Positions 3,734 to 25,971 of a stretch of 26,271 bases of DNA are shown piece by piece (the first letter of the stretch is position 1; every line of letters starts with the position of its first letter). Source of the DNA: a virus. A model generated the notes under the pieces. The model had not been told where the DNA came from. It was given only the letters and a program-made list of their open reading frames with translations, and did no database searches. The DNA lies in UHGV virus genome UHGV-0343389; one strand, written 5' to 3'. A program made the translations under genes and the position numbers.

Positions 3734-6480
3734 TATTTGCCCCCTGCGTATATATTGCTCGGAAGGTAATTGGCTGAACCATAACCGAATGGTTTGGTCA
3801 GATCTGGAGGAGTATATCCATCTTTATTGCTGAACTGCGGCAGCGGATTGCCTTCTCTCCGCACTCTAGCCTCATCAACACGCTGTTGCTGTAACTGAAT
3901 GGTTTGCCTGTACATTGGAGATGTCAGTTGATCCGGCTTGAAACGAACAGGGAGACCATTTTCTCCAATATAATTTCTCGGTTCTATCGCTCCGTTTGCG
4001 TCAGGCTGTAAAACCATAACAGCATAACTCCTATCCCTTGCCGTAAGGCCATCAGAAACAAGTATTAAGTCCGTATCACTGCGAGGACCGCCAAAGGATT
4101 TTGATTTAAGCTCGCGTTTTTCCTGCTCCCACTGCCCCTGTATCCAGTTACCAGCACCATTATTTACTCCGTACAATGCCTCAGGTGCATACTTCATAAC
4201 CTCTGCTTTGCCATTAACCGTAGAAACTCCCCAGGTGGTTCTGATCATGGCATTGGTCATTTTCTCAGCCTGTTCTGCATCGCCACCTGTCTGTACAAAG
4301 TTAGCATCGTAAATTGTCTGGTAATCTCGCTGATAGGCCGCATTTGATTTTCCTGGATCGGTAATATCCGGAGACCACGAACCAAAGGAAGTCAGACTGC
4401 TGGCGTTATTTTGTGCAGCAGTTGCCCTCGCCGCGACATATTTTTTGTCTCGCATGGCAGTGGAAAGCATCTGTTTCATTCGGTCATCCTGTTGGAACAC
4501 CTGGCTGTAAGCCATATCAACAGCCTTATCCTCCGGCACGCCAGCGCGGGAATAATCGTAAACCTTGCCGTAAAATGCCATCGTACTTTTATCAAGTGTT
4601 GCCGCTGCCGCCGGATTATTATCGAATAACTGACCGTAGAATTTTGCCATCGGGACAACCAGCGCAGGATCTCTTGATGTTGCTCCACTGTTAAGCATTG
4701 TTTTAACCTGAGTTGGTATCATGCCGCTTTTAGTTGTGACGGTGACCAGTGTATTGATGCTCTGCGGATCAGATATGGAAAACGAAGGCGCGATATCCTG
4801 CGCGAAATAACGGTCTACCGCTGCCTGATTGTTTTTGTCGTTCGGGTCCAGCGGGAAGTTATTTTGCATTGAAGACACGAACCTGTTTCTTCCCTGCTGA
4901 ATCTCCCACTCCCTATCCATCTCTTTAAATTTGGCCTGCATTTTCTCCCAGCGTTGCTGGTTAGCAGCAAATCCAGGAGCGTTTGGATCCTGTGGACGTA
5001 AACGTTCAAGAATGTCTTGTCGTCCTTCTGGAGTGAGGTCTTTAGCGGCACCAATGACACCTCCATATTGTATCTGCGCCTGCATATCCTTCCACTTCAT
5101 AGCGCCAATGCGCGGACCATTGGCCCGGATAAAATCGTCCTCAGAAGGTAACTTCTCAGGTTTCAATCCTTCATCAAGGGCTGAATATGCATCTTTAACT
5201 ACGGTGCTAAGCTGGTCCGCATACTGCTGGCGGTACTGATTTCTCAGCTCATTAGCCTGCCTCAATGCCTGTATTTGCATTTGAGGGCTCATAGCATCAA
5301 ATGCCGCATTGCCCGTATAACGCTTAGGTGAATCAAGGTTAGTTAGACCAAGGGCTGCCGAGATACCAGTTTCAAGCTGTTCGGTGCTATAAGGCATACT
5401 GCCATTTTCGTGTTTAATAATCCCAGCACATAAAGCAGCTAGTGTCTTTGGGTTAGAGATATCAAGCTGATCATTCTCCCCAACACCAAGCTCACCACAC
5501 AATGCCCTAATATAAGCATCAGTATTATTACCATCACTAGCCGGAGCATAGCGATTAACAATCTCGCTAACGGTGTCATAGCCTTGACGCTGGTAAGACA
5601 ACATATTTTTACCCAACGCGCGGATTCCATGCTCAGGGGTAGCAAACGTTGCAAAACGTCCATCGCTACCGATCTGACCTTCCCACGGGTTAGATTTGCT
5701 CGCTTCAATATTACCAGGGTTATTATTACGTAAACCACGAGCATCCAATGAATTACCATGTGATATTGCACGACTCACACCACCAAGATCCCCTGGCTCT
5801 CCATTAACCTGAAGAAACTCGTTGTATTTTTGAGCGATATTTCCTATCCATGCTTGCTGCCCCATTTGTTCCTTGAGCTGAGTTTTCTGCTGAACACGCC
5901 ACTCATCAGGAAGCCCATGCGCATCAGCGTATTGATCAATAGATTCAAATCGCTGCTTGGCTAAATCGACAAATGCTTGGTTATCGCTATATAGCCCCGC
6001 AGACTGAGTGACAGCCAATGCATTTCCTGACAAATACGTTTGATCTTGGAATTGCTGAAACTGCCCAACTTCATATCGACGTGCCTGATTGTAATAAGAC
6101 TGCATAGACTGCTGGAGTTGAAAGGATAATTTATTCCTTTCCTCACTTTCAGGGATTGAGCCTAATAATGCCTGAGCCCTTTCCTGCATATTTTTCATAA
6201 CAGCGTCACTCTGACCAAGAGCGTTTTTACCCTGTTTAGAAATCAGCCCATTTTCAGGGTTGTTAATCTGGTCATCTGCAAATTGGTTAAATTGCAGTAA
6301 CGCCTCCTGGGCCATAGCAACATTCGCTTTCTGCCTGGCTTCACCATATGCCACCGCATACTGATCTGCGACATTCGCCAGCACCTGACCTGCTTGAGGA
6401 ACATCGAAGGTCTGAAAACCACCGGTTTGCACACCACGACTTTGCACCTGGCGTCCGGATGTAGTAGGAACAACAGGCAT
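3733..6480 (-). CDS. Internal virion core protein (T7 gp15-like by position); central conserved block, possible cell-wall-active domain
   Basis: 915-aa ORF between the gp14-like and gp16-like genes, translationally coupled at both ends. Contains the block GLRNNNPGNIEASKSNPWEGQIGSDGRFATFATPEHGIRALGKNMLSYQRQGYDT. Function inferred from position. Confidence 0.5.
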   Translation of the reverse strand: MPVVPTTSGRQVQSRGVQTGGFQTFDVPQAGQVLANVADQYAVAYGEARQKANVAMAQEALLQFNQFADDQINNPENGLISKQGKNALGQSDAVMKNMQERAQALLGSIPESEERNKLSFQLQQSMQSYYNQARRYEVGQFQQFQDQTYLSGNALAVTQSAGLYSDNQAFVDLAKQRFESIDQYADAHGLPDEWRVQQKTQLKEQMGQQAWIGNIAQKYNEFLQVNGEPGDLGGVSRAISHGNSLDARGLRNNNPGNIEASKSNPWEGQIGSDGRFATFATPEHGIRALGKNMLSYQRQGYDTVSEIVNRYAPASDGNNTDAYIRALCGELGVGENDQLDISNPKTLAALCAGIIKHENGSMPYSTEQLETGISAALGLTNLDSPKRYTGNAAFDAMSPQMQIQALRQANELRNQYRQQYADQLSTVVKDAYSALDEGLKPEKLPSEDDFIRANGPRIGAMKWKDMQAQIQYGGVIGAAKDLTPEGRQDILERLRPQDPNAPGFAANQQRWEKMQAKFKEMDREWEIQQGRNRFVSSMQNNFPLDPNDKNNQAAVDRYFAQDIAPSFSISDPQSINTLVTVTTKSGMIPTQVKTMLNSGATSRDPALVVPMAKFYGQLFDNNPAAAATLDKSTMAFYGKVYDYSRAGVPEDKAVDMAYSQVFQQDDRMKQMLSTAMRDKKYVAARATAAQNNASSLTSFGSWSPDITDPGKSNAAYQRDYQTIYDANFVQTGGDAEQAEKMTNAMIRTTWGVSTVNGKAEVMKYAPEALYGVNNGAGNWIQGQWEQEKRELKSKSFGGPRSDTDLILVSDGLTARDRSYAVMVLQPDANGAIEPRNYIGENGLPVRFKPDQLTSPMYRQTIQLQQQRVDEARVRREGNPLPQFSNKDGYTPPDLTKPFGYGSANYLPSNIYAGGK

Positions 6481-15739: not shown

Positions 15740-15754
15740 TTACCAATTTAACCA
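15740..15754. promoter_or_regulatory. Half-site of the TTACC-N5-GGTAA operator (TTACCAATTTAACCA)
   Basis: Left half perfect, right half degenerate. Centre is exactly 62 bp from the perfect site at 15802-15816. Confidence 0.35.
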
Positions 15755-15801
15755 CATATGATTTATTTATCGTAGACAGTTGACATTTAACGCACGAATT
15801 A

Positions 15802-15816
15802 TTACCTTTCAGGTAA
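15802..15816. promoter_or_regulatory. Operator-like palindrome TTACCTTTCAGGTAA upstream of the portal operon
   Basis: Perfect 5+5 inverted repeat with 5-bp spacer, in the intergenic region between the portal operon and the tRNA island. Overlaps a TTGACA-containing candidate promoter. Confidence 0.6.
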
Positions 15817-16138
15817 CCAAAGAGTTCATTCCGGTTACTAACCTGACTGGCTTGTCGTTAAATTGAACAGGTGGAGTGAGCTTTTATTTTGAGCAGTACG
15901 GCGTATGGCACATGCGCCGATAGCGGTCTGGATACGTTTAAGGGGCACCCTCCCTTGCTCGGGCAAACGAACCAGGTAGCCGGAATGTGCAAGTCGAGCG
16001 GTTTTATTCCGCGCACGGGGATTCACCATCCAGGCGATTCGGTGTGACACCTCGGAAGAGACGAGGGTACAACGATGAGAGCATTTATGGAGCCGCGACA
16101 AAGTGTGGCGCCTTAACAGGCTAAGTGCTCTCAGCGTT

Positions 16139-16215
16139 GTGGCATTAGCTCAGCTGGACAGAGCAACCGCCTTCTAAGCGGTTGGTCGCAGGTTCGAATC
16201 CTGCATGCCACGCCA
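16139..16215 (+). tRNA. tRNA-Arg (anticodon UCU), phage-encoded
   Basis: Cloverleaf folded by hand: acceptor GTGGCAT/ATGCCAC, D-stem GCTC/GAGC, anticodon stem ACCGC/GCGGT with loop CTTCTAA, T-stem GCAGG/CCTGC with loop TTCGAAT, discriminator G and encoded CCA. 77 nt. Confidence 0.9.
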
Positions 16216-16301: not shown

Positions 16302-16379
16302 ACAGCAGGACGCCATTGCGATGACTTCATGCTGTAAACCAGTACAGCCACGGAAGGCATAACTCATTGCTTCCAGTTC

Positions 16380-16404
16380 GCCCGGTTCGCCGGGCATTTT
16401 TTTT
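16380..16404 (+). terminator. Rho-independent terminator (UUCG tetraloop)
   Basis: GCCCGG-TTCG-CCGGGC followed by ATTTTTTTT. Confidence 0.7.
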
Positions 16405-16429
16405 AGGTGAGATTATCAAGACAATTGAT

Positions 16430-16837
16430 ATGTTGGCTAAGTATCTAAATGAATGGCCATTAAAATATTCTCGTATCGTTCAGGCTGAAGACTGCATTTT
16501 TTATGGCGTTTTTGCTGGTAATGAAATGCATTACGAAGTAATTCAGAGTGAGGGGCTGACCGGGTTAACTCTTAGAGAAGACCATGGTACTAGCGTTACG
16601 TTCCATGACTGGATAACAGCACAACGTTCTGAAATGGAAAAAGGCGATGTGTTTGATATTTCTCGCTCTGTTTGCGCTAAAGCAAAAAGTGATAATGATT
16701 ACATGAGCGAACACTTATACAACATGAAGCTACAGTGCCTTGCCGAGGTGCTTGGTAAAAAAGCTATTGTCGATAAACAAGGCGCCATTAGCGAAGCAAA
16801 GGCAATAAATGCTGCATTTGATGAAATTATTTTCTAG
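16430..16837 (+). CDS. AT-rich cargo (moron) gene, hypothetical 135-aa soluble protein
   Basis: ORF on the opposite strand to all flanking phage genes. Markedly lower GC than neighbours. Bracketed by intrinsic terminators. No signal peptide or TM segment apparent. The ATG at 16430 is preferred because the upstream TTG extension runs through a terminator hairpin. Confidence 0.6.
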   Translation: MLAKYLNEWPLKYSRIVQAEDCIFYGVFAGNEMHYEVIQSEGLTGLTLREDHGTSVTFHDWITAQRSEMEKGDVFDISRSVCAKAKSDNDYMSEHLYNMKLQCLAEVLGKKAIVDKQGAISEAKAINAAFDEIIF

Positions 16838-16840
16838 CTC

Positions 16841-16854
16841 TGTGACATGTCACA
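16841..16854. repeat. Perfect 14-bp palindrome TGTGACATGTCACA
   Basis: Read directly from the sequence, 4 nt after the cargo-gene stop. Its 12-bp core recurs at 19293-19304. Confidence 0.5.
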
Positions 16855-16857
16855 AAC

Positions 16858-16886
16858 AGCCAGCCGATGAGCTGGCTTTGTTTTAT
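16858..16886 (+). terminator. Rho-independent terminator after the cargo gene
   Basis: AGCCAGC-cgatga-GCTGGCT followed by TTGTTTTAT. Lies between the convergent cargo gene and terL. Confidence 0.6.
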
Positions 16887-16927
16887 CCTCATCAGAGGAT
16901 ATCAACGACATTATCCCCACCAGCGGA

Positions 16928-18403
16928 TTAATCATAGGGATCGTAATCTGTGATGGCCTTGCCTTGCTGGTTCTGCTGCCCGGGAATTCGCAGACGCTTC
17001 GACACAGGGAAAGCAAACGTCAGCAGTAGCGCATCGCCTTTACCCGGCGAGCGCCCAAGCCGCTCCTTGATATCTTCCTTCGGTTCGATAACGATTTTAC
17101 CGTCCACTCGAACTTTGTACTCTGCCGCCGACAGGTCGTCCGCTGTTTCCTGGTCATCCAGCATGCCGCCCAGCCTCAGCCATGTCTTGCATGAGTTGAA
17201 CATCTCCCCGCGCTTATTGAGCATCTGCGGGTCAGTAGACGCGCCACCGAACGGAACAAGTTGCCATGTACGACCCCAGCCGTCACCGATTGACTTCAGA
17301 CCAGTTCCGTAACCGAAGTCGATGAACACTGCGTCAGCCTGGTACTGGTCTTCAAAGTCAGCGATACGCTTCGCCATAATCAGATCGTCAGTAGTCTTGT
17401 TGCCAGTCCACAGCACCTTACTGTGCAGCCCCTGCCGCAGGTATATCACCGCGTCATCAACGCCTGAGTATGCCGGGTCAACGCCGATTATCACCGGAGC
17501 ATGTGCAACCTGCGCAGCGGTTACCACCCGTTTCATTGCCTCATCAGTAAGACCGGTAGGGATAAACTGCAATTCAGATGCATCAGGGAATATGCCGCGC
17601 ACACGGATTTTAACGAAGTCGCTGTCTTCCCCGTAGTCATCAACCCATTTCTGCAACTGCTGTTTGTTAGTGCCTTCCACCGTCCGGCTGTCAATCTGCG
17701 CACACTTCCAGCGGTGTTTGTACTTGCGGAAACATTCACGGAAACGCCCGGTGTTACGCGTCGGGTTCCCGAACGCCACCCAGATGATTTCGGTGTCTTC
17801 GTCCGTCAGCGCACCCTCTGCTACCTCCCACACAAGATCGGCAATATTCGACGCTTCATCGAATACCACGATGATGCGTTTGCGCTCGTTGTGTAGTCCG
17901 GCGAATGCCTCAGTGTTGTGCTCAGACCAGGGGATTGCGTCAGCTCGCCACCGCTTGTCGTGCCCAGGGTCATTGCTGTACATCGCGGTAGCGGTACAGG
18001 TAAACCAGTCTTTCGTGATAGCAAGGTTTGACCACTTGATAATTTCCGGCCAGGTCTTCGTTCGTAGCTGGTTGTCGGTGTTGGCGGTCACCACGACCTT
18101 ACAATCCTCGCAAGTGGACATGCCCCAGTTGATCAGCATTGAGATAAATGCGGATTTACCAATACCGTGACCAGAAGCGCGTGCCAGCATAAGCGGCTGA
18201 TAGCGCGTCTCTGGATTCTGCAGGTGATCACGTATCTCTCGGAACGCATCAGCCTGCCATTGACGTGGGCCGGTAGCATGTGCCAGTTCAGTCCCCTCTT
18301 CCCCCCACGGGAACGCATAGAGAGCATAGCCAAGCGGATCGTGAGTGAACCCTGCAATATCCTCGATCAACTGCTCTTCAGGAGATAACGCTGTATCTGT
18401 CAC
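16928..18403 (-). CDS. Terminase large subunit
   Basis: 491 aa. Walker A-like GHGIGKS near the N-terminus. Acidic nuclease-like segment (VIIGVDPAYSG) in the C-terminal half. GTG start overlaps the terS stop (GTGA). Confidence 0.85.
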   Translation of the reverse strand: MTDTALSPEEQLIEDIAGFTHDPLGYALYAFPWGEEGTELAHATGPRQWQADAFREIRDHLQNPETRYQPLMLARASGHGIGKSAFISMLINWGMSTCEDCKVVVTANTDNQLRTKTWPEIIKWSNLAITKDWFTCTATAMYSNDPGHDKRWRADAIPWSEHNTEAFAGLHNERKRIIVVFDEASNIADLVWEVAEGALTDEDTEIIWVAFGNPTRNTGRFRECFRKYKHRWKCAQIDSRTVEGTNKQQLQKWVDDYGEDSDFVKIRVRGIFPDASELQFIPTGLTDEAMKRVVTAAQVAHAPVIIGVDPAYSGVDDAVIYLRQGLHSKVLWTGNKTTDDLIMAKRIADFEDQYQADAVFIDFGYGTGLKSIGDGWGRTWQLVPFGGASTDPQMLNKRGEMFNSCKTWLRLGGMLDDQETADDLSAAEYKVRVDGKIVIEPKEDIKERLGRSPGKGDALLLTFAFPVSKRLRIPGQQNQQGKAITDYDPYD

Positions 18404-18996
18404 TGATTACCATCCTGACGTTCTTTGAGTCGCTTCCTGGCTGCTGCTATGCGATCAGCAATTGTCACATTCACATTAACATCCAGGCGTTCTTTGAATG
18501 CGTTGACGTCGACGTGCTTACCAATCAGTTCGAGGTTCTTCACCTTGTCAGGCCATTTAATTTTTTTGAGGATTGTCTCTATCGAATCCTCGTTCATGTT
18601 CATGATGGTCGATGACAGATCAAAGCCGCTAAGCGTAGTGCGCCAGATTTTCGGCCACTCGCGGATTGGCTTAAGGCTCCCATCGTCGTTGAGGATGTCG
18701 ATCACGTCCATCTGGTCGATCTCCACCAGGCGCATGAGAACGTAATCAGCACTGACGCGCATTCGTTTGTTGCGCTCTTCCATCAGCTCGGCAATCCGTT
18801 TTTGAATGCGTTCATCGCGCATCATGACACTGGCTTTAACTGCCGCTGTATTTGGGGAGAATCCTGCGTTAATCGCTGCCTGAGTCTGGTTTTCAGGCGT
18901 TTTGATGTATGACTGGCAATAAGCCTCCTGCATTGCTGTTAGTGGCTTAAATTGCGTTGATTTGCGTTTATAGGTTTTAGGTTCAGCAGGCATCAT
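18400..18996 (-). CDS. Terminase small subunit
   Basis: Immediately upstream of terL and translationally coupled. Start trimmed to ATGATG at 18996 (SD GGTGG). The longer track ORF to 19074 reads through operator repeats and a terminator. Confidence 0.65.
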   Translation of the reverse strand: MMPAEPKTYKRKSTQFKPLTAMQEAYCQSYIKTPENQTQAAINAGFSPNTAAVKASVMMRDERIQKRIAELMEERNKRMRVSADYVLMRLVEIDQMDVIDILNDDGSLKPIREWPKIWRTTLSGFDLSSTIMNMNEDSIETILKKIKWPDKVKNLELIGKHVDVNAFKERLDVNVNVTIADRIAAARKRLKERQDGNQ

Positions 18997-19010
18997 AACC
19001 ACCGTGGTAA
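18996..19010. promoter_or_regulatory. Operator-like site TAACCACCGTGGTAA (one mismatch), overlapping the terS start
   Basis: Inverted repeat 18 bp (centre to centre) from the perfect site at 19014-19028. Confidence 0.45.
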
Positions 19011-19013
19011 TAG

Positions 19014-19028
19014 TTACCGTTGTGGTAA
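19014..19028. promoter_or_regulatory. Operator-like palindrome TTACCGTTGTGGTAA upstream of terS
   Basis: Perfect match to TTACC-N5-GGTAA, between an intrinsic terminator and the terS start codon. Confidence 0.6.
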
Positions 19029-19039
19029 TAGTACCATGC

Positions 19040-19065
19040 AAAATAAAGCCGCCATAGTTGGCGGC
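19040..19065 (-). terminator. Rho-independent terminator immediately upstream of the terminase operon
   Basis: On the minus strand: GCCGCC-AACTAT-GGCGGC followed by TTTATTTTG. Confidence 0.6.
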
Positions 19066-19070
19066 AGTAT

Positions 19071-19283
19071 TCAAAGTCCATCAAATTCATCGTAAAAACT
19101 CTCGTCAAGATACCCTTCCCATTTACCGCGAATGAAAATTACATCCTCGCCGCAAGGGTGCTGACTGTCGATAACTATATCCCTCCTGGCGCAACCATAC
19201 TTATGCATGAGAAATTTAACCTCTTTCGGAAAATTTGCTGAGTTATCTCTCATATCTTCAAGGTCGTAGCGTATTTTTGGCAT
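19071..19283 (-). CDS. Hypothetical 70-aa protein
   Basis: ORF with SD GAAGGTG. ATG at 19283 is preferred over the GTG at 19304 that lies inside the palindrome. Confidence 0.4.
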   Translation of the reverse strand: MPKIRYDLEDMRDNSANFPKEVKFLMHKYGCARRDIVIDSQHPCGEDVIFIRGKWEGYLDESFYDEFDGL

Positions 19284-19292
19284 AACACCTTC

Positions 19293-19304
19293 GTGACATG
19301 TCAC
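19293..19304. repeat. Perfect 12-bp palindrome GTGACATGTCAC (second copy)
   Basis: Lies between the zinc-ribbon gene stop and the 70-aa gene start. Confidence 0.5.
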
Positions 19305-19642
19305 ACTATTAATTTCGTTTCATGCCAGCCTTTGGTTACCCAGCATTGCGAGTCACCATTACACGGGCATGAATTCACAGGAACTCTCTCGCCGCACTTA
19401 CCGCAACGTTTTCTGCTGATCGATTTTATACGCCCGCGCACGCGTGCATCATCCTGGCGGATCAGTAACGCTATATACTCACCAAATTCGTAAGGCGCAC
19501 GCCCGGGGCGACGTGTGGCACAGTTACGCTCCAGCATTTCAATTTCCTGAGCATCAAGCACAATCTCCAGCTTACGTACACCAGATGCAGCTTGTCTGGC
19601 TCTCTGAGCGGCTTTGCGCTCTGCTGCTGATTTAGCCATCAA
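19301..19642 (-). CDS. Small basic zinc-ribbon protein, candidate transcriptional regulator
   Basis: 113 aa. Basic N-terminus (AERKAAQRARQ). C-terminal Cys cluster CGKCGERVPVNSCPCNGDSQC. Last gene before the terminator and terminase operon. Confidence 0.45.
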   Translation of the reverse strand: MMAKSAAERKAAQRARQAASGVRKLEIVLDAQEIEMLERNCATRRPGRAPYEFGEYIALLIRQDDARVRGRIKSISRKRCGKCGERVPVNSCPCNGDSQCWVTKGWHETKLIV

Positions 19643-19913
19643 TATTTACCTTTATCGCGTATACCTTTACCGGTTTATCGCCGAAGTGCGGATGTGTGAT
19701 TGTCTTGATTTCATAGCCGCCATACGGAACGTCAATTCTGCGGCTGGAATCGTCACGCTTCGGATATCCCTTTGTGATAATCAGGCGGTCATATTCCCGG
19801 AACATAATTCGCTTTTCCCAGTAGTCATTACACAGGCGATACTCTTCCGTTTTATCTCCGCGAATCATGGCATCGAAGTATTCACCTTTGACGGCAAGTT
19901 GCAGGTTAGCCAC
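19632..19913 (-). CDS. Hypothetical protein
   Basis: 93-aa ORF overlapping its neighbours by a few nt. No recognised motifs. Confidence 0.4.
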   Translation of the reverse strand: MANLQLAVKGEYFDAMIRGDKTEEYRLCNDYWEKRIMFREYDRLIITKGYPKRDDSSRRIDVPYGGYEIKTITHPHFGDKPVKVYAIKVNIDG

Positions 19914-20658
19914 GGTTAACCTCCTGCTGCTGTTCTGGCAGCGGCATCCAGTGGGTTACGTCATCTAGGATATTTCCTGATAAATACGTGAAAGCTCTGT
20001 ATTTTTTGTAATCAATTGGATTTACAACCCAGTTCCAATATGCGGCCACGATTTCACCTTGACTAAATGCCAGTAACATTTTGGTGTCTTCCGGCATTCG
20101 CTCACTACAGCTTATCCAACTATCCGGAGTTGCCGGAGAGTTGCCATTTACATCGAAGTTTGGCTCTGCGTCCTGAACCAGGAGGATGTAACCATTCTTG
20201 GCAGTATCAAGTTCTAACGCCTCGGTGACGGTGCCGAAATAGCGATTACCTAAATCAGCATCACAAGTGCTTACATCAATGGAAACTTCCATGCCTTCGA
20301 TTAATTCTGGCAAGTTGTAAGTTTGGTTTACAGGTTGGCCTCCCTGAAGCATGGCGGCGCGGTGACACCAGATAATCCAGCCAAGCGCCATATCCCATGC
20401 CATGTATTCTCTATCACCATTTTTTGCCCTGCGGCGATCTACAGATTCCCCGAAACGCTTCTCCATAAATAATTCATAGGCTGCCCGTTCATCCGATACT
20501 GCTGCCAGCGATGCCAGTGCAATTTTAAATGCGGTAAGTATGTTGTTAACCACACCTATTTCGAATGCTATTTCACTACATACAAACGATTTATCGTCTA
20601 TTATCGACTCAATTCCGGTAATCGTGTTCTGTAACCATTCTTTGGTAAGAGTATTCAT
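19906..20658 (-). CDS. Hypothetical protein with DUF551-like C-terminus
   Basis: 250 aa. C-terminal segment ending ...DDVTHWMPLPEQ resembles the conserved end of DUF551 phage proteins as recalled from memory. Confidence 0.45.
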   Translation of the reverse strand: MNTLTKEWLQNTITGIESIIDDKSFVCSEIAFEIGVVNNILTAFKIALASLAAVSDERAAYELFMEKRFGESVDRRRAKNGDREYMAWDMALGWIIWCHRAAMLQGGQPVNQTYNLPELIEGMEVSIDVSTCDADLGNRYFGTVTEALELDTAKNGYILLVQDAEPNFDVNGNSPATPDSWISCSERMPEDTKMLLAFSQGEIVAAYWNWVVNPIDYKKYRAFTYLSGNILDDVTHWMPLPEQQQEVNRG

Positions 20659-22944: not shown

Positions 22945-22947
22945 GAT

Positions 22948-22962
22948 TTACCTCTGAGGTAA
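22948..22962. promoter_or_regulatory. Operator-like palindrome TTACCTCTGAGGTAA
   Basis: Perfect site just upstream of the 22944 start codon. Centre 62 bp from the site at 23010-23024. Confidence 0.6.
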
Positions 22963-23009
22963 TTAAAAACCACATAAGACACGAAATCAATAGATTTTAG
23001 AATATTTTA

Positions 23010-23024
23010 TTACCTAGAAGGTAA
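23010..23024. promoter_or_regulatory. Operator-like palindrome TTACCTAGAAGGTAA
   Basis: Perfect site. Together with 22948-22962 it flanks a candidate minus-strand promoter. Confidence 0.6.
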
Positions 23025-23061
23025 TCATCGAGACGTAAAAAAATGCGCCATCGCGCTGGTA

Positions 23062-25314: not shown

Positions 25315-25316
25315 AT

Positions 25317-25386: not shown

Positions 25387-25971
25387 ATGAAAAGTATCCA
25401 GGACGTCCGCAGGCAAAATCTCAACGACTTGATCGACCGTGAATTCAATGGTGTTCAGACGCGGATGGCAGAAAAACTTGGAACTCAGGCAAATCTGGTA
25501 AACCGCTGGGCTCTTGGCAAGAAGGTTATCGGCGACCAGGTTGCGCGAAAAATTGAAGCTGCCGCCAATAAACCCCGTAACTGGCTTGATATCGATCGCT
25601 CGCTTTCTCAGGAAGGTTTTCAGCCTGTCGGCCCAAGCGACATTGGTCAGCTGGCGGCTCACAACCTGGAACGCTGGATGAGCGAAAGCCGCGACCTTTC
25701 AACACAGGGAAAACTTCACCGCGCATCCGGCGTCGCCCAGGTGACAATCAGCCGCCTGTTAAACAATGAGGTTAGCGTTTCCATTTCCACCCTGGAGAAT
25801 GTGGCATCCGCATTCGGGCGTCACGGCTATGAATTACTGATTCACCCGCACGACCCTGCGACCATCAACTATGACCGCTCGCGCTACGCATTGTTACCCG
25901 AAACCGAGAAAGCAAAGATCGAAAGTTACATTGAATTTGTCATCAACCAGAACGAAAAAAGCAAACAATAA
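25387..25971 (+). CDS. CI-like immunity repressor with two HTH (XRE-type) domains and no recognisable S24 peptidase domain
   Basis: 194 aa. HTH 1 near residues 20-45 (QTRMAEKLGTQANLVNRWALGKK). HTH 2 near residues 110-140 (LHRASGVAQVTISRLLNNEVSVS). No Ser/Lys autocleavage module evident. Divergent from the Cro-like gene. Confidence 0.6.
   Translation: MKSIQDVRRQNLNDLIDREFNGVQTRMAEKLGTQANLVNRWALGKKVIGDQVARKIEAAANKPRNWLDIDRSLSQEGFQPVGPSDIGQLAAHNLERWMSESRDLSTQGKLHRASGVAQVTISRLLNNEVSVSISTLENVASAFGRHGYELLIHPHDPATINYDRSRYALLPETEKAKIESYIEFVINQNEKSKQ

Follow-up and report, generated by a model that had tools for sequence, protein, structure and literature searches.

The DNA analysed here, virus genome UHGV-0343389 (26,271 nucleotides (nt), one strand; the whole stretch is hereafter called the window), belongs to a Uetakevirus, an epsilon15/phiV10-like temperate podovirus of Escherichia coli, and most of it aligned by megablast to EC.W1-9, PAS61, phiV10 and TL-2011b at 96–98% identity. 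The subject of this analysis is the junction at which the early-right operon meets the terminase genes on the minus strand. There, the gene of a small basic protein homologous to epsilon15 gp49 is followed by a 12-base-pair (bp) palindrome, an open reading frame (ORF) of 70 amino acids (aa), a hairpin with a U-tract, two operator-like sites and the small terminase gene terS (Table 1). An earlier interpretation made from the letters of the window only (the sequence-only reading) had pointed out each of these elements, all of which were found where it placed them, and had joined them into a single gate of the late operon that terminase transcription has to pass by readthrough. With a probability of about 0.6, the junction is better explained as three separable parts than as one gate: a terminator, a predicted repressor-controlled promoter of terS directly after it, and a gp49-family protein paired with the palindrome; the 70-aa ORF is exchangeable cargo.

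The terminator-operator-terS layout is ordinary and already annotated in epsilon15, whose RefSeq record (NC_004775.2) gives gp49 (‘transcriptional regulator’), a rho-independent terminator, a repressor site and terS in this order; as far as can be told, the terminator and repressor-site annotations are predictions. The gp49–terS junction of epsilon15 shares with the window the gene order, a homologous hairpin, the operator consensus and the palindrome at the gp49 stop codon, whereas the window has in addition the 70-aa ORF between palindrome and hairpin as well as another good operator. Neither the palindromes nor the extended −10 element described below are listed in the epsilon15 annotation. 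For comparison, 207 related loci were taken from IMG/VR and the stretch between the gp49 stop codon and the start of terS was extracted from each, giving 137 distinct gp49–terS intervals and 82 distinct terS-upstream sequences. An Rfam scan of positions 16500–20000 returned no match.

Predicted terminator, promoter and operators in front of terS

The hairpin (GCCGCCA-ACTA-UGGCGGC, 19065–19048 on the minus strand, followed by TTTATTTT to 19040) has six GC pairs among the seven of its stem, sits after the last ORF of the operon and ends 44–47 nt before the two candidate ATG codons of terS (18996 and 18993). Its RNA folds at −17 kcal/mol (z = −3.6), which none of 200 shuffled sequences reached. 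Among relatives its sequence is too conserved to give a covariation signal; in other phages with a gp49 homologue, on the other hand, an unrelated hairpin with a T-tract follows the gene at a similar distance, and such non-homologous terminators in the equivalent place support a real terminator closing this operon. Together with the annotation of the homologous hairpin in epsilon15, these features make it a credible intrinsic terminator at the early/late junction, as had been proposed, which is predicted to end the early-right operon and in this phage also the cargo ORF. The GCCGCC hairpin is absent, however, from 22–23 of the 82 distinct terS-upstream sequences, mostly those with the UmuD′-like cargo described below, and these keep terS, operator and −10 element. 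A terminator barrier that is obligatory before the late genes, as in a Q module, was thus not found here.

The sequence-only reading had left no room for a conventional promoter between the hairpin and terS, but an extended −10 element, TGgTACTAT, fits there (19036–19028, minus strand) and overlaps the first operator, O1. When the terS-upstream sequences were aligned on this operator, TG-n-TA(C/G/T)(T/C/A)AT was found just upstream, with the TG kept in 82/82 and hexamers that all read TAnnAT (TACTAT in 56, TAGTAT in 14, TATTAT in 7, TACCAT in 3 and TACAAT in 2), so that T1, A2, A5 and T6 never change. The arrangement is that of sigma-70 extended −10 promoters, in which TG at −15/−14 stands one base before a TAnnnT hexamer; the invariant positions are those that matter most in sigma-70 promoters, and the varying ones are the least important. 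Upstream of the TG the classes of relatives differ entirely, with hairpin and T-tract in some and the 3′ end of a UmuD′-like gene in others. The flanks of the other operators show no such conservation, so the operator by itself does not account for that of TGnTAnnAT. What stays constant is thus promoter and operator and not the terminator, which argues against an obligatory readthrough of the hairpin into terS.

Transcription from this predicted promoter, P_terS, would start near 19021. O1 would then reach from about −8, at the final two bases of the −10 hexamer, to about +9, and O2 from about +11 to +27, over the Shine-Dalgarno sequence GGTGG. The same register is seen at the leftward promoter, where the first two operator bases are also the last of the −10. 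The two operators also fold into a hairpin of −20.7 kcal/mol (z = −3.25) in a read-through RNA (18970–19047), pairing the Shine-Dalgarno sequence and both AUG codons, whereas RNA from the predicted start lacks the 5′ arm and does not form it; this sequestering fold would likewise speak against a dependence of terS on readthrough. Taken together, terS is most likely transcribed from its own repressor-controlled promoter and would need no readthrough. In the mechanism we propose, P_terS would act as a sigma-70 extended −10 promoter directly after the hairpin, with O1 over its −10 element and start site and O2 over the leader and Shine-Dalgarno sequence. The terminase operon would then be a transcription unit of its own, shut off directly by the prophage repressor and firing upon repressor inactivation, by the same control logic as at the other lytic operons that carry this operator.

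ATG 18993 is the likely start of terS, as it stands 5 nt after GGTGG as in epsilon15. The longest terS ORF begins with a TTG at 19074, upstream of the hairpin, and runs through the hairpin and both operators. Such a long form (675 nt) is annotated in phiV10 and PAS61, and by comparison with epsilon15 these annotations are probably too long.

The operator consensus ATTACC-N5-GGTAAT was derived from the seven repressor sites annotated in the epsilon15 RefSeq record. O1 (ATTACCACAACGGTAAC) and O2 (ATTACCACGGTGGTTAT) each differ from it at one position, and the window contains 9 matches at ≤2 mismatches, compared with 0.71 expected. Besides the two sites before terS, perfect or near-perfect matches at 25316, 26028 and 26090 stand on both sides of the repressor gene and leftward promoter, the rep/cro interval included; those at 22947 and 23009 precede the nin-like operon and that at 15801 the gp3/portal region. 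The ninth match, at 3754 with two mismatches, falls on a gene junction and could have arisen by chance. O1 and O2 thus share the 17-bp palindrome found beside rep in the immunity region, which supports their assignment as repressor operators of a set dispersed before most lytic operons; the protein of two helix-turn-helix (HTH) motifs encoded at 25387–25971 is their presumed ligand. Dispersed operators through which one prophage repressor controls many lytic units, late ones included, are likewise found in P1 (C1 operators) and mycobacteriophage L5 (gp71 sites), but the repressor here is of another, double-HTH family, which is inactivated by the antirepressor Ant in SPC32-type phages, and its sites are far fewer. 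The L5 sites are asymmetric and act on elongation.

Table 1. Position and strand of the features at the gp49–terS junction and of related elements in the window
Feature	Position	Strand	Remarks
DUF551 protein gene	20658–19906	minus	
ASCH-like protein gene	19913–19632	minus	
gp49-family gene (112 aa)	19304–19639; TGA stop 19303–19301	minus	last conserved gene of the early-right operon
Palindrome 1, GTGACATGTCAC	19293–19304		overlaps the gp49 stop codon
70-aa acidic ORF	19071–19283	minus	isoelectric point (pI) 4.8; optional cargo; PHROG 1541
Predicted intrinsic terminator	19040–19065	minus	end of the early-right operon; 7-bp GC stem, 4-nt loop, TTTATTTT
Predicted extended −10 promoter P_terS	19028–19036	minus	TG 19036–19035; hexamer TACTAT 19033–19028
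Putative repressor operator O1, ATTACCACAACGGTAAC	19013–19029		equivalent site annotated as repressor binding site in epsilon15
Putative repressor operator O2, ATTACCACGGTGGTTAT	18995–19011		spans the terS Shine-Dalgarno sequence GGTGG (19003–18999) and the first ATG
terS (Terminase_2)	18400–18993	minus	Pfam PF03592, E = 1e-29
terL	16928–18403	minus	
Hairpin 3′ of terL	16858–16877		T-tract on the plus strand
Palindrome 2, GTGACATGTCAC	16842–16853		4 nt from the terL-side hairpin
Prophage repressor gene	25387–25971	plus	two HTH motifs; Pfam HTH_3, E = 1e-9; homologue of epsilon15 and SPC32 rep

Further features were noticed at the other operators. Those at 22947–23025 bracket a good promoter (TTGATT-17-TTTAAT) before a DUF1064 gene (22944–22600), and as they lie inside the early-right gene string, the ‘early-right operon’ itself appears to be split into repressor-controlled units. 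The operator at 15801–15817 overlaps a promoter-like element on the plus strand (TTGACA-17-TACCTT, region 15780–15817) that points at tRNA-Arg(tct) (16139–16215) and a 156-aa ORF (16367–16837), and may control this reverse-oriented cargo unit instead of, or besides, the gp3/portal operon. A motif, (c)ATATGTGGTTT, occurs about 33 nt downstream of the repressor operators before the gp3, tailspike, lysis and nin-like operons and not at terS (15749–15759 and 22967–22977 in the window; 24754 and 35956 in epsilon15; 20924, 24742 and 35119 in phiV10). It is not enriched in the window by itself and could be part of a different, possibly activator-dependent, promoter class.

The gp49-family protein and the palindrome at its stop codon

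The protein encoded upstream of the palindrome comprises 112 aa from ATG 19639 (113 aa from TTG 19642) with a pI of 9.8, and is 77% identical to epsilon15 gp49; four of its six cysteines (C79, C82, C91 and C99) are conserved in the family. It is labelled ‘transcriptional regulator’ in PHROG 536. No Pfam match was obtained for it at E ≤ 0.1, nor for any of 67 family members at E ≤ 0.01, and NCBIfam holds no family for it, the only hit being a sub-threshold one to the CopG-type YbfE (E = 0.053). An exhaustive profile search among 1.84 billion proteins yielded 209 representatives at 50% identity, nearly all of them stand-alone proteins of 105–135 aa; scanning with P0278, a divergent member, gave no loci. 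Homologues include N15 gene 46, Pectobacterium phage ZF40 gp22 and genes of phiKO2, P2-like Yersinia phages, and Vibrio and Aeromonas phages, the host genera found being Escherichia, Salmonella, Klebsiella, Yersinia, Pectobacterium, Vibrio and Aeromonas. ZF40 and N15 encode Q-like antiterminators besides their family member, so the family is not simply a replacement of Q.

AlphaFold2 run on an alignment of the 67 sequences gave a model with a predicted local distance difference test score (pLDDT) of 91.8 (a first run on a shallow alignment, pLDDT 65, was not used). Along the chain it shows a basic helix at the N-terminus, then an extended segment and two helices, next a Cys-rich knuckle with C79, C82, C91 and C99, and finally a short helix at the C-terminus. 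The model thus contains the strand-helix-helix core of ribbon-helix-helix (RHH) proteins, although no profile match to a curated RHH family was obtained in Pfam or NCBIfam. Foldseek against the PDB gave nothing significant, phmmer and hmmsearch against PDB sequences no match, and a BFVD structure search only a fragment of the same protein. Based on the model, the protein is a predicted RHH/zinc-knuckle DNA-binding protein and a plausible regulator. It shares the predicted beta-alpha-alpha core and the small basic character with RHH regulators such as Arc and Mnt of P22, CopG, TacA, AmrZ and TraM, and its putative site would be a short palindrome as with these, but it differs from them in the extra N-terminal basic helix, the C-terminal Cys4 zinc knuckle, the absence of a Pfam RHH match and the position of the putative site, which lies at the 3′ end of its own gene and not in its promoter.

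This site, GTGACATGTCAC at 19293–19304, overlaps the TGA stop codon of the gene so that only four of its bases are coding, and it is kept in nearly all of the 137 distinct intervals whatever follows. The same arrangement is seen at N15 gene 46 (GTGACTGGTCAC) and ZF40 gp22, and in a clade of the family that is about 35% identical to the window protein the stop-codon site reads GTGACAGGTCAC or GTGACGGGTCAC. In genomes with a family member, GTGAC-NN-GTCAC occurs in 1–3 copies (epsilon15 3, ZF40 3, N15 3, window 2), compared with about 0.05 expected, and the central dinucleotide is constant within a genome (AT in ZF40 and epsilon15, TG, or CA on the other strand, in N15). This co-occurrence ties the palindrome to the protein and not to the terminator, and makes it very probable that the gp49-family protein binds there; that the two belong together as a regulatory pair is well supported by comparison. 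The protein would recognize the palindrome at its own stop codon as well as the other copies where operons end. No paper containing the palindrome sequence came up in a full-text search.

The second exact copy in the window (16842–16853), missed by the sequence-only reading, adjoins the terminator after terL and is kept at this position in >110 related loci and in epsilon15, SPC32N and phiV10. The terL-side hairpin of these loci shows compensatory stem changes (GCCAGC/GCTGGC versus GCCCGC/GCGGGC); it would terminate the convergent cargo unit and possibly the terminase operon too. Three palindrome positions are common to epsilon15, SPC32N and phiV10: one at the stop codon of gp49, one beside the hairpin on the terL side, and one where the long structural operon ends, 1–2 nt ahead of its terminator. 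At all three the order is gene stop, palindrome, hairpin and T-tract, in the direction of the transcript served by the T-tract.

Some further placements were recorded. The phiV10 record is cut inside the first palindrome copy. The palindromes of N15 lie at 28550, 33237 and 39269, the latter two flanking the immunity region, with one copy inside repA and another separating gene 33 from the antirepressor (gene 30–32) region. Those of ZF40 lie at 5125, 7622 and 14944, the first two one on each side of cI/cro/cII. Sites flanking an immunity region would suit DNA looping. Two other roles of the palindrome were considered and rejected: as the −35 element of a promoter feeding the terminator it is not followed by a consistent −10 across classes, and as a proximal activator site for P_terS it lies at distances from the −10 of about 61, 79 and 265 nt up to >2 kb among relatives.

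Alternative explanations of the junction

Three points weigh against a terminase operon under direct repressor control with an independent protein-palindrome pair: P_terS has no recognisable −35 (the consensus promoter scan requires one and therefore did not list it), a terminase promoter of this kind offers no obvious early-to-late delay, and the three palindromes of this genus all lie 0–40 nt from terminators, which is left unexplained. Lambdoid phages carry Q, the late promoter and the terminator tR′ directly before the late genes, and by analogy the sequence-only reading had terS without a promoter of its own and reached by readthrough of the hairpin, with the zinc protein as a possible non-canonical antiterminator; in the version weighed here, late transcription extends the early-right transcript and the protein loads at the palindrome. 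The gene does occupy the position of lambda Q: it is small, encodes a putative regulator, closes the early-right operon and is the last conserved one before terminator and terS. Family genes are mostly found at the early/late boundary, as in ZF40, K303 and a P2-like Yersinia phage. At all three sites of epsilon15, SPC32N and phiV10, moreover, the palindrome stands 0–22 nt upstream of a terminator, in transcript direction, an order that provides the strongest case left for the protein influencing termination. In the lambda Q-PR′-tR′ module, however, the promoter precedes the terminator, whereas here it is predicted to follow it and carries repressor operators; neither a constitutive late promoter upstream of the terminator nor, among the relatives, any conserved promoter between palindrome and hairpin was found, and the interval between these two at the gp49 site ranges from 22 nt to >2 kb. 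The protein matches none of the Q families of Pfam (Phage_antitermQ, Antiterm, Phage_antiter_Q). The late activators Ogr of P2 and Delta of P4 are likewise small zinc-binding phage proteins near the early/late boundary, and the P2-like Yersinia phages carry a gp49 homologue, but our protein has no Ogr_Delta match and another Cys spacing, and its site stands at no fixed distance from any promoter. Antitermination is further disfavoured by the conserved −10 downstream of the hairpin, by a hairpin that about a quarter of the distinct relatives do without, by the coexistence with Q-like proteins, by palindromes of ZF40 and N15 that lie inside genes far from terminators, and by the terL site, where the properly terminated transcript is that of the convergent cargo unit and an antiterminated one would run antisense through terL. 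We therefore regard it as unlikely; in a weaker form of the proposal, the protein, a plausible DNA-binding regulator, may influence termination or otherwise act at the early/late boundary. Also unlikely, by a hair less so, is a palindrome-bound protein that acts as a roadblock or insulator, reinforcing the terminators at operon ends, limiting readthrough between early, cargo and late units and, at its own stop codon, gating transcription into whatever follows. The palindromes do lie at boundaries of transcription units and variable cargo slots, the ZF40 site falls between the family gene and ninB-HNH-Q, and at the terL side the palindrome stands 4 nt past a hairpin whose T-tract on the terL strand is poor, where a bound protein would hold RNA polymerase within the zone of termination; on the other hand, strong terminators are already present at two of the three sites, and the intragenic sites of ZF40 and N15 would block essential transcription if occupancy were high. 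Both antitermination and roadblock/insulation are live but minor alternatives.

The palindrome also resembles matS, the site of E. coli MatP (GTGACRNYGTCAC; PMC6907758). Its half-sites GTGAC/GTCAC are identical to those of matS, and MatP likewise contains an RHH; all phage sites, however, are of 12 bp with a 2-bp spacer instead of 13 bp with 3, and in the Pfam scan the phage protein had neither of the two domains that MatP proteins carry (PF06303, N-terminal, and PF17414, C-terminal RHH). An hhalign comparison of the family with E. coli MatP was not significant (E = 0.18); the MatP homologues found were about 97–100% identical, plus one at 69%, and gave no useful MatP profile. The resemblance is thus a lead and not a membership. 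That the palindromes serve as matS-like sites, at which the phage RHH protein or host MatP bridges or positions phage DNA, organising DNA and not transcription, would agree with the identical half-sites, with the host genera of family members, all of which we take to be among the MatP-bearing gammaproteobacteria, and with the combination of a site adjoining the 3′ end of the gene and dispersed copies, which resembles ParB/parS-type modules; the differing spacer, the missing domains and the lack of detectable sequence homology speak against it, and MatP reads DNA largely via a four-helix bundle, which the phage protein lacks along with the coiled coil, making this reading quite improbable. A broader proposal, doubtful as it stands, is that the gp49-family protein and GTGAC-NN-GTCAC form an undescribed module common to podo-, sipho- and myoviruses of enterobacteria, Vibrio and Aeromonas, either a local termination switch at unit boundaries, by antitermination or roadblock, or a MatP-like bridge between sites, which times or insulates the late genes independently of Q. 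Finally, the direct repeats before terS might be recognition sites of the terminase (pac- or cosB-like) and not operators, as they lie immediately upstream of terS and the epsilon15 record is linearised exactly at them. They match the palindromic operator of the immunity region and other operons, though, and the phiV10 record is linearised elsewhere; headful phages with P22/Sf6-like terminases, moreover, carry pac inside terS, and we give this explanation hardly any weight.

The value of these results is in part corrective: for the terminase operon of these phages, a repressor-controlled promoter of the extended −10 type is most likely, rather than an antitermination gate. What deserves experiments is the protein-palindrome pair, a testable match between a specific 12-bp site and a family of small phage proteins that is widespread (about 209 clusters at 50% identity), has no Pfam model and is labelled only ‘transcriptional regulator’ in the databases. 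Should the pair prove to control termination or DNA architecture, this would account for the ordering of late genes in Q-less temperate podoviruses and would give a function to N15 gp46, epsilon15 gp49 and ZF40 gp22.

Cargo slots beside the terminase genes

The sequence-only reading had counted the 70-aa ORF as a component of the gate. Its Shine-Dalgarno sequence begins 1 nt, and its ATG stands 9 nt, past the palindrome, and it lacks a promoter of its own. In 52 of 80 near-identical relatives the interval is short and the ORF is missing but for an 8-codon remnant; 25 carry it in the version of the window. A small ORF that neighbours uvsY in 694 T4-like records shares about 50% identity with the 70-aa ORF. 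Its absence from many relatives, the uvsY-neighbour homologue and the other cargo found in the same slot mark it, as judged from these comparisons, as exchangeable cargo and not as part of the regulatory device. An antirepressor role was considered and rejected: the ORF shows no similarity to Ant of SPC32/epsilon15, and the antirepressor of vB_EcoP_ZX5 is a Bro-N protein.

The gp49–terS junction is a hot-spot of such cargo, in a slot equivalent to 19292–19066 of the window. In many relatives (loci L092–L119, L124 and L100 among others), a perfect SOS-box promoter (TTGACT-17-TACTGT, box TACTGTTTAAATATACAGTA) lies directly past the palindrome and drives one of two genes, for an 85-aa protein or for a 109-aa UmuD′-like protein that ends in DDDIPIM, similar to the SSB tail; loci of the UmuD′ type lack the hairpin before terS. 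Further relatives carry inserts of 1–2.4 kb in the slot.

The cargo ORFs of two slots end alike: the 156-aa ORF on the plus strand in AFDEIIF (16813–16828) and the 70-aa ORF in YDEFDGL (19074–19089), each followed by the stop codon. In relatives, YEFDGF ends an ORF of the terL-side slot and MHDEFDGF is the 8-codon remnant of the gp49-side slot. The similar C-termini suggest either a shared recombination junction or a functional C-terminal motif.

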